The translations under genes and the position numbers were made by a program. From positions 1 to 51,368 of the forward strand of contig JAGVAV010000025.1 in assembly GCA_020060105.1 (NCBI GenBank): DNA of 51,368 bases. The letters are read 5' to 3'. Positions 1 through 51,368 of this stretch are shown piece after piece. Below the pieces are notes generated by a model. It searched no databases. It was not told where the DNA came from and worked only from the letters and a program-made list of their open reading frames with translations. The first letter of the stretch is position 1, and each line of letters starts with the position of its first letter. This DNA is from Candidatus Woesebacteria bacterium (GTDB taxonomy: Bacteria; Patescibacteriota; Microgenomatia; Woykebacterales; 2-01-FULL-43-14).

Positions 1-98
1 GGTACAATAATGTTAGACCGCACCAATCACTTAAATACCAGTCACCTTATCAGTGTTACTTAAAAGGAGGATTGTCTCAAAAGTACTGATCCAGGACA
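1..98 (+). mobile_element. 3' end of IS481/IS3-like insertion sequence (transposase C-terminus plus right terminal repeat), cut by window start
   Basis: 3..89 reads YNNVRPHQSLKYQSPYQCYLKGGLSQKY*, the YNxxRPHxSL..P motif of rve/DDE transposases. Element ends ...TGATCCAGGACA at 98. 2..98 is the exact reverse complement of 51272..51368. Confidence 0.85.
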
Positions 99-103
99 AC
101 TCT

Positions 104-132
104 TTGACATTTTCGTGGCTAAATGATAACAT
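104..132 (+). promoter_or_regulatory. sigma70 promoter TTGACA-17-TAACAT (extended TG)
   Basis: TTGACA 104-109, TG 124-125, TAACAT 127-132, upstream of ORF 203. Confidence 0.65.
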
Positions 133-4961: not shown

Positions 4962-6083
4962 TTATCTTCCTGGCGTTGGAACGTTAAAGAACGGAATAGG
5001 TGATCCCGCGCCAACGTAAGTAGGAACTTCTCCAGTCCAACGTTGGGTCTTTTGATATTCCAGGTAAGCGTCAGGCGACTTGGCAAGAGCCGCTTGGACT
5101 GCCTGGATTCCCTCTGCTTCCGCAAGATACTTGGCCCTGATCTGGTAGGCATCAGCGTCAGCGACCATTTTTTTAGCCTCAGCTTCTCCCGAAGCCTCCG
5201 CGATTCGCTTCTCCTTTTCCGCTTCCGCAGCTCTCTTTACGACGATGTAGCCGGTGTTTGCCCTGATCTCTTCCGCTTCTTGTTCTTTACTTCTCGTTTG
5301 AATCAGTACTCCCGCCTGCTCTTTTTCGAATTCCCGTTGAGCGACTTCATTAAGCATGTTTTCAATGATTTCATCAAATCCGTAGTCAACGATGGCGAGC
5401 TGGAGCACGAATACTAGAGGCTCCTTGTCTTCATTCACAAGTTGACGCTGAAGTGCCGCTTCTACTTCATTTTCCATCTCCGCGCGCTGGTTCCCAACGA
5501 AGTTGTAAGGACGAGCGCCTTGAGTTCCTTTAAGAGTACTTACCCAGACTCTCTCCACCCAATTATCGAGATAATCCGGTCCGTAGCGGAAATGGAGTTC
5601 GACGATGCGGTCGGGATTCGGATAAGCCCAACCGCGGGCCCAAAAGTATACGACCGGCCGGCCAGGACTGTTTGAATCAGCCTGAACCCCCGTATCCTTA
5701 AGGGATTGTTGCTTAGCTTTGTCAGGCTTTGATCCGATTTCAATCGTCTGCCGGCGAAGGTCATACTGCGTAACCTTGGTTACAAAGGGTGCTAAAATCG
5801 GTTGGAAAGGCCAGGCATGGAATCCGGGGCCGATCTTGGAGTATTGCCCGGTGAAGGTGTTCTCCACAACAGCAATGTGATTGGCCGGAACTTGCGTAGT
5901 TCCCGAGAGCAGTATCAGTAGCACGATTGAAATGATGCTTACGACAGCAGTTAGGGAGAAGGTAAATAGAGACCAGAAGTCGCGACTGTTGTTATAAGGT
6001 GGCGTCCGGAATCGGTTGTAGAAAAAAATACCTATCGAGCCAAAGAGAGTAACGAAAGCTGCGAATGTGATCAGAGTGAGCAC
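4962..6083 (-). CDS. SPFH/band 7 (prohibitin-like) membrane protein
   Basis: Two N-terminal TMs, VPANHIAVV...PGFH, AE-rich coiled coil, WTGEVPTY tail. Confidence 0.85.
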   Translation of the reverse strand: MLTLITFAAFVTLFGSIGIFFYNRFRTPPYNNSRDFWSLFTFSLTAVVSIISIVLLILLSGTTQVPANHIAVVENTFTGQYSKIGPGFHAWPFQPILAPFVTKVTQYDLRRQTIEIGSKPDKAKQQSLKDTGVQADSNSPGRPVVYFWARGWAYPNPDRIVELHFRYGPDYLDNWVERVWVSTLKGTQGARPYNFVGNQRAEMENEVEAALQRQLVNEDKEPLVFVLQLAIVDYGFDEIIENMLNEVAQREFEKEQAGVLIQTRSKEQEAEEIRANTGYIVVKRAAEAEKEKRIAEASGEAEAKKMVADADAYQIRAKYLAEAEGIQAVQAALAKSPDAYLEYQKTQRWTGEVPTYVGAGSPIPFFNVPTPGR

Positions 6084-6292: not shown

Positions 6293-6321
6293 ATTGTAAC
6301 AGAAAAGAGCGAGTATGTCAA
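6293..6321 (-). promoter_or_regulatory. sigma70 promoter TTGACA-17-TACAAT (extended TG) giving an about 200-nt leader to the SPFH gene
   Basis: -35 at 6321-6316, -10 at 6298-6293. Confidence 0.65.
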
Positions 6322-6400
6322 AAAGATTGTACTGGAAGGGTACATCGGTAATGGTTTGGGAATAGATTGAGCATACTCAATTAGGGTAAGGTATGCAAGT

Positions 6401-6662
6401 TGTCCTGGATCAGTACTTTTGAGGCAATCCTCCTTTTAAGTAACACTGATAAGGGGACTGGTACTTAAGTGATTGGTGCGGTCTAACATTATTGTACTAG
6501 TTAAGCCAAGTAGTTAATTTTTCTTGAAATTCTTCTGGATAAAGCAAGTAGTCATAAGATTACGATATACAGTAGTAGAATATTTTGGTCTAGAGTAAAC
6601 AATCTTGTTAAAATCGGGCGGCAATTTAACTTAATTGTCTCAAATGTGTTTGATCTTTTTCA
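6401..6662 (-). mobile_element. internally deleted, decayed copy of the IS481-like element (MITE-like)
   Basis: 6401-6497 has 3 mismatches to the terminal copies. Minus strand encodes PEEFQEKLTTWLN*YNNVRPHQSLKYQSPY. Imperfect second terminal repeat TGAAAAAGATCAAACACATTTGAGACA starts at 6662. Confidence 0.8.
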
Positions 6663-50675: not shown

Positions 50676-51230
50676 TCAGGGGAGCTTTTTGACTTCCTCT
50701 AATAAAGCTTCGTATTCTTCAATCAGGGGATGATCCCAGGAATCCTTAAACATCTTCAAACTTTCTTCTTCAAACCAAATCTTTTTCTCTCTGTCTTGAT
50801 GAAAAACGTTCCACGTAGATTTTTTGAGTTCGTAATAGTCAGAAAGAATGCTCTCTAGATTGTGAATTTTATCGGCGATCGAGACCGCTTTCGCTTCAAC
50901 AGAACCTGCTTGAACGGACTCTAGATAACGTTTCCTCTCTTCATCCCAGGATAAACGTTTGTCATAAGTTACAGTTTTAACAATGTTAAAAACCTTCTCG
51001 CCCAACTCCCGTTTTAACTTTGAAGGAGGATATTCCGTGTCTTCCAGCACGTCGTGAGTCAAAGCAGCCGCTAAGACTTCATCTGAAAAACCATGCTTTG
51101 CCAGCTTCAAAGCCACCGCCATGGGGTGAATGAAAAAAGGTAGCTTACTCACCCGGCGCACCTGTCCCTGATGGGCCCTCACGGCGACCCGTATCGCTTT
51201 TTCAACCAAGCTAACTTCCGTCGTCCTCAT
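50676..51230 (-). CDS. HD domain protein, small alarmone hydrolase (RelA/SpoT HD, Mesh1-like)
   Basis: AHQGQVR..PFFIHP, AALTHDVLEDT, ADKIHNL. Confidence 0.88.
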   Translation of the reverse strand: MRTTEVSLVEKAIRVAVRAHQGQVRRVSKLPFFIHPMAVALKLAKHGFSDEVLAAALTHDVLEDTEYPPSKLKRELGEKVFNIVKTVTYDKRLSWDEERKRYLESVQAGSVEAKAVSIADKIHNLESILSDYYELKKSTWNVFHQDREKKIWFEEESLKMFKDSWDHPLIEEYEALLEEVKKLP

Positions 51231-51237
51231 GACTTAA

Positions 51238-51266
51238 ATTTTAGCCTCTTAAGGCTAAAGAGTCAA
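51238..51266 (-). promoter_or_regulatory. promoter TTGACT-17-TAAAAT; leaderless transcript likely
   Basis: -35 51266-51261, -10 51243-51238, ATG 7 nt downstream. Confidence 0.65.
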
Positions 51267-51271
51267 GGTTA

Positions 51272-51368
51272 TGTCCTGGATCAGTACTTTTGAGACAATC
51301 CTCCTTTTAAGTAACACTGATAAGGTGACTGGTATTTAAGTGATTGGTGCGGTCTAACATTATTGTAC
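51272..51368 (-). mobile_element. 3' end of IS481/IS3-like element, inverted copy cut by window end
   Basis: Exact reverse complement of 2..98; transposase stop at 51283-51281. Confidence 0.85.

Follow-up and report, generated by a model that had tools for sequence, protein, structure and literature searches.

An IS481-like insertion sequence at a fixed distance upstream of host promoters in a Patescibacteria genome

Introduction

Why does the right end of an insertion sequence lie directly in front of a promoter at the very start of this contig? In bases 91–132 the tip of an IS481-like element is followed, five nucleotides further on, by a promoter of the housekeeping type. Such an arrangement could reflect the choice of promoters by the transposase, the survival of random insertions in harmless places, or a promoter that belongs to the element itself.

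Promoter-directed transposition in bacteria has so far been described for Mutator-like elements. Guerillot et al. 2014 (PMC3942029) reported that the Mutator-like TnGBS, ISLre2 and ISKra4 elements insert in one orientation, 15–17 bp upstream of sigma-A promoters. In the sections of that article at hand this specificity is called unique to the families treated there, the asymmetry between the inverted repeats is taken to set the orientation, direct guidance by a protein is proposed but not proven, and the name IS481 does not occur. The corresponding sections of PMC10045372 never mention promoters for IS481, and those of a recent preprint (bioRxiv 10.1101/2025.07.22.666184) note that IS481 elements lie close to flanking genes, with nothing further on targeting. 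A preliminary description of the locus knew of no promoter targeting by IS481- or IS3-type enzymes, and we found no such report in the literature searched, a search with subscription journals and ISfinder outside its range. The element analyzed here belongs to another superfamily than the Mutator-like elements, one that includes the retroviral integrases.

Both contig termini lie inside copies of one element

The window, i.e. the whole stretch of 51,368 nucleotides that was analyzed, is one complete contig (C10) of a 1.09-Mb genome assembled in 40 contigs (G000). Both termini fall inside copies of the same element, referred to as IS-A, which are inverted relative to each other (98 nt at the start and 97 nt at the end). 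The following features were mapped:

1–98, plus strand: terminal 98 nt of IS-A copy 1, cut off by the contig start
3–89, plus strand: 3' end of the transposase gene in copy 1, codons from base 3 with the stop TGA at 87–89 (translated by hand)
99–103, plus strand: target-site duplication ACTCT of copy 1; its twin is found where contig C21 starts, beside the IS left end
104–132, plus strand: host sigma-70-type promoter TTGACA-17-TAACAT (consensus scan, logo register)
6293–6321, minus strand: promoter-like site TTGACA-17-TACAAT, 80 nt past the right end of the relic and facing an SPFH-domain gene (4962–6083)
6401–6662, minus strand: internally deleted, MITE-like relic of IS-A, 262 bp
51238–51266, minus strand: host promoter TTGACT-17-TAAAAT, upstream of an HD-domain gene (50676–51230)
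51267–51271, minus strand: target-site duplication TAACC of copy 3; its twin is found where contig C37 starts, beside the IS left end
51272–51368, minus strand: last 97 nt (right end) of IS-A copy 3; the contig ends inside the element

The right inverted repeat of copy 1 terminates with ...GATCCAGGACA. Bases 3–86 translate by hand to YNNVRPHQSLKYQSPYQCYLKGGLSQKY, which is identical to the C-terminus of the protein P0001. Since this peptide is both a typical end of an rve-type transposase and the C-terminus of P0001, the terminal repeat is the right end of an insertion sequence. Positions 1–98 are also 100% identical to 12 other contig ends.

In copy 1 the element (...CCAGGACA) stops at position 98 and is followed by ACTCT (99–103) and the promoter boxes TTGACA-17-TAACAT (104–132). 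The predicted transcription start is located at approximately position 139, and the promoter faces a gene at 203–568 that encodes 121 amino acids without a Pfam family. The layout recurs on the minus strand in copy 3, where the IS ends at 51272 and is followed by TAACC (51271–51267) and TTGACT-17-TAAAAT (51266–51238). The consensus scanner lists both promoters, each with 10/12 matches. The ATG of the HD-domain gene (51230–51228) begins 8 nt past the -10 box, a position that suggests a leaderless transcript.

According to the preliminary description the right end abuts a -35 box in three copies. This is exactly true for copies 1 and 3 but not for the third, decayed copy, which does carry the sequence quoted for it (2 nt, then TTGCAT-17-TATGCT at 6398–6370) and yet gives no support to the pattern. 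Its offset is 2 instead of 5, TTGCAT agrees with TTGACA at only 3/6 positions, the site is not listed by the scanner, and no target duplication is present (flanks TCCCA and ACTTG). With a far better promoter 80 nt further on, we rejected this copy as a third example. The relic is composed of element positions 1–108, 10 nt, and positions 927–1070. A second MITE-like relic of 162 bp, in the related genome G002 (L020, contig C26), has a clean 5-bp duplication, ACTAA. Neither of the two MITE-like copies is located at an in-register promoter; either they outlived their promoters or mobilization in trans is less precise.

Structure and classification of the element

IS-A is an IS481-like element of about 1.07 kb with a single 325-residue DDE/rve transposase and imperfect TG...CA inverted repeats. 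The left end reads TGAAAAAGATCA... and the right end ...TGATCCAGGACA, with the internal motif TTTGAGACAAT common to both. Because contigs break within the element, its interior is absent from the G000 assembly, and the transposase is deduced from P0001, for which the window permits a check of the C-terminal 28 residues only. The sole full-length DNA copy that we saw (L016, genome G002) comprises 1,070 bp; owing to its frameshifted reading frame and its lack of a duplication, it was rejected as a model of the active element.

The family assignment of the preliminary description was borne out. A Pfam search with the G002 copy returned rve, rve_3, HTH_32 and HTH_28, and the best NCBIfam family is IS481, with 164–184 bits for IS-A, 184–202 bits for a second element (IS-B) and 195 bits for a third (IS-C; both described below), all three below the curated IS481 cut-off of 224 bits (NF033577). 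IS3 ranks second at 76–101 bits for IS-A and 76–120 bits across the three elements. IS3 transposases are defined by two overlapping frames with a -1 frameshift and at least 160 bits against NF033516; the proteins found here are encoded in single frames, and P0001 has its 325 residues in one frame without a programmed frameshift, as is the case for IS481. IS-A shares with canonical IS481 (NF033577) the single frame, the combination of a helix-turn-helix with a DDE/rve domain, the TG...CA tips and a length of about 1.1 kb. IS481 duplications of 2–15 bp, mostly 6 bp, are given in the part of PMC10045372 at hand, whereas the IS-A duplication is 5 bp long (12/13 copies).

The predicted structure of the transposase (pLDDT 76) combines an RNase H fold with two helical DNA-binding domains, and the nearest solved folds are those of retroviral integrases and of the IS21 transposase IstA. 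No Mutator-type family appeared among the Pfam or NCBIfam matches. The protein stops shortly after the catalytic domain, and no extra domain was found besides the RNase H fold and the customary pair of helix-turn-helix domains; thus nothing in the protein points to a docking module.

Junctions in the genome

The genome holds 13 full IS-A right ends in addition to the relic. Beyond each of the 13 tips come 5 nt and then a -35-like and a -10-like hexamer separated by 17 nt. The -35-like hexamers are TTGACA in eight cases, TTGACT and TTGCAA in one case each and weak in three (TTG in 10/13), and the -10-like hexamers conform to TAnnnT in 12 cases, the remaining one being CAAAAT. Twelve of the 13 right ends satisfy the composite promoter criterion. 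The right end, which carries the 3' end of the transposase gene, is always on the promoter side, so that only one orientation is observed.

There are also 13 left ends, 12 at contig ends and one in the relic. Identical 5-bp duplications match 12/13 right ends to 12/13 left ends, which identifies the insertions as ordinary transposition events. With the -10 box at -12 to -7, the duplication spans about -40 to -36. Twelve target sites could be reconstructed in this way, and their left flanks (-41 and upstream) show no compositional signal. For the window itself, the matching duplications give the contig order C21 -> IS -> C10 -> IS -> C37.

Many insertion sequences carry outward -35 boxes, so the TTG hexamer or the whole promoter might be a part of IS-A, for instance an outward-facing IS promoter. 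We regard this as virtually out of the question. A 5-bp duplication lies between the tip and the hexamer, with its twin at the left end in 12/13 copies, and the spacers are unrelated between sites. Furthermore, TTGACT-17-TAAAAT also stands before the G002 ortholog of the HD-domain gene (61% identity), with the ATG 8 nt later and without any IS. The boxes are therefore older than the insertion. The attribution of the -35 and -10 boxes to the target DNA thus holds, also in the comparison with the IS-free ortholog. In abutted IS ends no convincing -35/-10 pair was recognized by eye.

Nature of the targeted promoters

The promoters, assigned here by consensus, include those of the genes for 16S rRNA, RNase Y and seryl-tRNA synthetase as well as those of a family-4 glycosyltransferase, a MerR regulator and the HD-domain protein of the window. 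In the first case (L010, end of contig C24) IS-A is located 5 bp upstream of TTGACA-17-TATATT, and the 16S rRNA gene (1208 bits with Rfam) starts about 207 nt beyond the IS tip. Copies in front of the genes for 16S rRNA, RNase Y and seryl-tRNA synthetase show that the element is tolerated ahead of essential genes.

The host encodes one housekeeping and one ECF sigma factor, and the region 4 recognition helix of the former is identical to that of Bacillus subtilis SigA. In 43/80 junctions of IS-A and IS-B an ATG begins at flank positions 39–45 (peak at 41–43), i.e. 5–11 nt past the -10 box at the predicted transcription start. This distribution suggests that leaderless transcripts are common in these Patescibacteria.

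Relatives and pooled junctions

A scan of the whole class with the right-end pattern of IS-A found it in only 3/401 genomes (13 times in G000, once in G002 and six times in G039) and, being confined to these, gave no new junctions. The element of G039, which is from another family of the same class, shows the promoter pattern at 6/6 contig-end junctions. Nine close relatives of IS-A were found in named genomes; the right end is on the contig in seven of these, and the pattern is present in 7/7. A 5-bp duplication is visible in three close relatives (L039, L040 and, with one mismatch, L045). The records with the closest relatives are titled Patescibacteria, Levybacteria, Daviesbacteria and Pacebacteria. 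Metagenome contigs scanned with the conserved right-end pattern contributed 49 loci. One orientation at a fixed distance, as proposed at the outset, is therefore seen in 13/13 right ends of G000, 6/6 of G039 and 7/7 relatives.

Pooling gave 76 junctions, 67 of which are unique by the first 20 nt of the flank (the flank of L038 equals that of L016 and was counted once). After four junctions with flanks shorter than 40 nt and the relic had been left out, 62 remained; the metagenome loci among them may include related strains, flank duplicates having been removed. TTG is found at offset 5 in 47/62 junctions versus 2.07% of 2.18 million positions in G000 (binomial P = 4e-66). The composite promoter criterion is satisfied by 52/62 junctions (background 1.10% in G000), and a -10 box is in register in 56/62 (background 5.7%). 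The binomial P-values of the three measures range from 1e-62 to 1e-91, to be read with the proviso that selection in a compact genome raises the promoter share among surviving insertions. Promoter-directed transposition by an integrase-type enzyme is real and highly significant.

Selection could in principle account for the whole pattern if insertion were random and promoter adjacency reflected survivorship in harmless intergenic places, and the genome is indeed compact, with about 86% in long open reading frames according to a crude call. We consider this very improbable. In the offset scan of the 62 junctions TTG occurs 47 times at offset 5 and not once at offsets 2–4 or 6–9. A single offset in combination with a single orientation is beyond the reach of random insertion followed by survival, and the site is thus chosen by the element. 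More distant IS481-type elements (see below) show no such offset.

In the sequence logo the duplication carries no information. It is followed by TTGACA, TG at -15/-14, TAtAAT and an A at +1, the expected start, and the information is strongest in the three bases nearest to the cut. For IS-A and IS-B combined, TTG is at offset 5 in 64/80 junctions. Both observations would agree with a transposase that reads the -35 hexamer itself (TTGnnn) and cuts 5 bp upstream, purifying selection having removed the genic insertions. The enzyme possesses two helix-turn-helix domains that could do so, and 444/648 TTGACA hexamers in G000 are inside coding sequence, where insertions would be lost. Nevertheless we judge direct reading of the hexamer to be unlikely, because several results speak against it. 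Of the 16 junctions without TTG, 14 keep a -10 box in register (P = 5e-16) behind hexamers such as GAGATT, TGGAGT or TTTTTT, and 7/16 have the TG at -15/-14 of extended -10 promoters; the choice of site is independent of the -35 sequence. Targets with TTGACA in G000 have a -10 box in 8/8 cases, compared to 98/204 (48%) of the intergenic TTGACA sites (P = 0.003). Finally, the internal motif of the inverted repeats, which is presumably bound by the enzyme, drifts among relatives (TTGAGACAA, ATGAAACAA, ATGGCACAA) while the target stays constant. A single domain that reads both TTGACA and the repeat motif TTGAGACAA was considered as well and rejected, since L042 and L046 have ATGAAACAA and ATGGCACAA and are still located at promoters.

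Two loci, L122 from a metagenome and L215 from genome G046, have no recognizable -35/-10 pair past otherwise normal right ends. They are either rare off-target insertions or involve another type of promoter.

Two further elements and distant relatives

IS-B is a second IS481-like element, found in G002 at contig ends (L201–L213), with the right tip ...GGTCCTGCACA. Its transposase is close to P0122 (340 residues), which is 28% identical to P0001. Each of the 13 right ends in G002 has TTG at offset 5. Among five relatives (L215, L216, L217, L218, L220) the pattern is present in four, and two have a 5-bp duplication; the IS-B type pattern was found in G013, in G035 (two copies) and in G027 (37% identity) and is absent in G046 (L215). 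Together, IS-B and its relatives show the pattern in 17/18 junctions. A maximum-likelihood tree calculated from 35 transposases places a branch with a support of 100/100 between IS-A and IS-B (22 rows) and 13 IS481-like enzymes of other phyla, although their status as a clade depends on the root of the tree and long branches meet at the separating branch. The habit is conserved over a deep clade that takes in IS-A and IS-B.

IS-C is a third IS481-like element, located in G000, with four left ends (ends of contigs C6, C11 and C17, start of C16), five right ends (ends of C3, C4 and C18, starts of C24 and C28) and four pairs of 5-bp duplications. In this case it is the left tip that lies 16–17 nt upstream of TTGAC[AT]-17-TATAAT, reading away from the element, in 4/4 left ends; at the right ends in G000 nothing was observed at a fixed offset. 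A relative in G008 (L235) has the same layout with a distance of 17 nt and the duplication AATGT, which brings the total to 5/5. The transposase of the G008 copy has 293 residues, scores 195 bits for IS481 and is about 25% identical to all other groups. A search for more copies of IS-C at the DNA level in 31 genomes and at the protein level in 61 genomes returned only G008 and a fragment in G009.

The register of IS-A and IS-B is therefore -40/-36 and that of IS-C about -51/-47, i.e. 11–12 bp or approximately one helical turn farther upstream, with opposite polarity of the element. Two registers and two polarities argue against a hexamer that is read beside the cut, IS-C being too distant from the same boxes for that, as well as against selection on read-through transcription.

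The spacing by one helical turn bears on another alternative, in which the enzyme recognizes the shape of promoter-upstream DNA (curvature, A-tracts, bendability) instead of a protein or a hexamer. Integrase-type enzymes favor bent target DNA, as is established for retroviral intasomes. Offsets of 5 and 16–17 nt would fit one face of a bent helix, and the duplication has no sequence preference. However, the left flanks of the 12 reconstructed sites (-41 and upstream) lack a compositional signal, and shape alone would hardly yield single-base precision and strict orientation in 64/80 sites. Recognition of DNA shape therefore seems quite improbable to us.

Distant IS481-type elements served as a control, which is only moderate in strength since many of their hosts are GC-rich. 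TTG at offset 5 was observed in none of 14 copies of three such elements, whose ends were set from repeated copies. Fourteen further loci were tried, ten of which had an inverted-repeat pair and nine of these distinct flanks (four loci were left out); the nine distinct single copies likewise lacked TTG at offset 5, and neither set had a promoter at a fixed offset. The duplications of the distant elements are 6–7 bp long where visible.

Proposed mechanism

We interpret bases 91–132 as the junction between the right end of an IS481-like element and a host promoter of the housekeeping sigma factor, the promoter being the target of the element, likely by way of the RNA polymerase holoenzyme. We assign this reading a probability of roughly 0.6. 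Guidance by the holoenzyme is favored because 14/16 junctions without TTG retain the -10 box in register, because every TTGACA target in G000 has a -10 box while only about half of the intergenic TTGACA sites do, because the target stays constant among relatives that differ in the internal repeat motif, and because two registers and two polarities occur.

The reaction would proceed as follows. A complex of the transposase with the DNA ends of the element would capture a promoter on which the bound RNA polymerase holoenzyme serves as a mark. The mark could be sigma region 4 on the -35 box or the neighboring C-terminal domain of the alpha subunit; within the stretch from -40 to -36, sigma region 4 makes contact with class II activators and with the proximal C-terminal domain of alpha. 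The complex might be positioned either by protein contact or by a distortion of the DNA caused by the polymerase, and the orientation would follow from the difference between the two inverted-repeat tips. The two strand transfers take place 5 bp apart, directly upstream of the -35 box, which yields the duplication at about -40 to -36 and leaves the core promoter and the gene downstream intact. A complex prediction with the alignments of the transposase and of sigma region 4 gave a score of 0.02 (mark 0.32), which speaks neither for nor against a contact. Guidance by RNA polymerase or sigma would provide the element with a safe harbor, a harmless landing place in a compact genome of 1.09 Mb.

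In its most general form, holoenzyme guidance would describe a deep IS481-type clade centered on the Patescibacteria that is tethered to promoter-bound holoenzyme, with sigma region 4 or the alpha C-terminal domain as the point of contact. Insertion would then be precise to the base, on one face of the upstream DNA and in at least two registers, in a manner similar to Ty3 and evolved independently of TnGBS. For this extended proposal we see about even odds.

Comparison with known systems

Elements of the TnGBS, ISLre2 and ISKra4 type belong to the Mutator-like transposase superfamily, whereas IS-A is rve/IS481-like. They insert 15–17 bp from the -35 box, compared to 5 bp for IS-A and IS-B, which are likewise oriented. 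The distance of 16–17 nt found for IS-C matches that of TnGBS, but the enzyme is IS481-like.

The closest formal parallel to IS-A is ISAjo2. As described by Harmer, Pong and Hall 2023 (PMC10132070), elements of the ISAjo2 type in the IS1202 family have an RNase H (DDE) transposase and TGT...ACA ends and reside in Acinetobacter hosts. They duplicate 5 bp of the target and insert in one orientation only, at a distance of exactly 5 bp from the site bound by a host DNA-binding protein, with which the authors suggest direct contact. The target there is the XerC side of dif/pdif sites, as opposed to the promoters targeted by IS-A. IS-A lies outside the ISAjo2 type as defined there and resembles it in duplicating 5 bp, in keeping a distance of 5 bp and in its single orientation.

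Among eukaryotic elements, the yeast retroelement Ty3 is tethered through initiation factors of RNA polymerase III. Its integrase inserts with base precision beside transcription start sites (PMC6673722). The Ty3 integrase is of the same fold class as the IS-A transposase, but Ty3 is a eukaryotic retroelement that acts on genes of RNA polymerase III, and outside the catalytic fold the two are not related in sequence. If the proposed guidance is correct, IS-A would represent a bacterial counterpart of the targeting of polymerase III genes by Ty3.

In comparison with the known Mutator-like case, the geometry is different and tighter, the precision extends to a single base, and three deep lineages are involved. 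The system makes it testable how a minimal, 325-residue enzyme of the integrase type could be aimed by the transcription machinery, and it illustrates how mobile elements are able to spread within very small genomes without disrupting genes. A compact integration system that seeks promoters with a single protein could also have practical value.

Additional observations

Each insertion of these elements is a natural promoter marker in Patescibacteria. Two IS-A relatives of the Patescibacteria type (L041 and L042), in records titled uncultured Gammaproteobacteria, lie beside AT-rich promoters; their presence in bins with this label could be due to mis-binning or to transfer. The left flank of L040 (...CAGGACA AGAAA) resembles the right tip of the IS together with the same 5-bp duplication and may be the trace of a tandem or an earlier insertion. 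Finally, the 12 pairs of IS-A ends and the four pairs of IS-C ends could be used to scaffold the G000 assembly.
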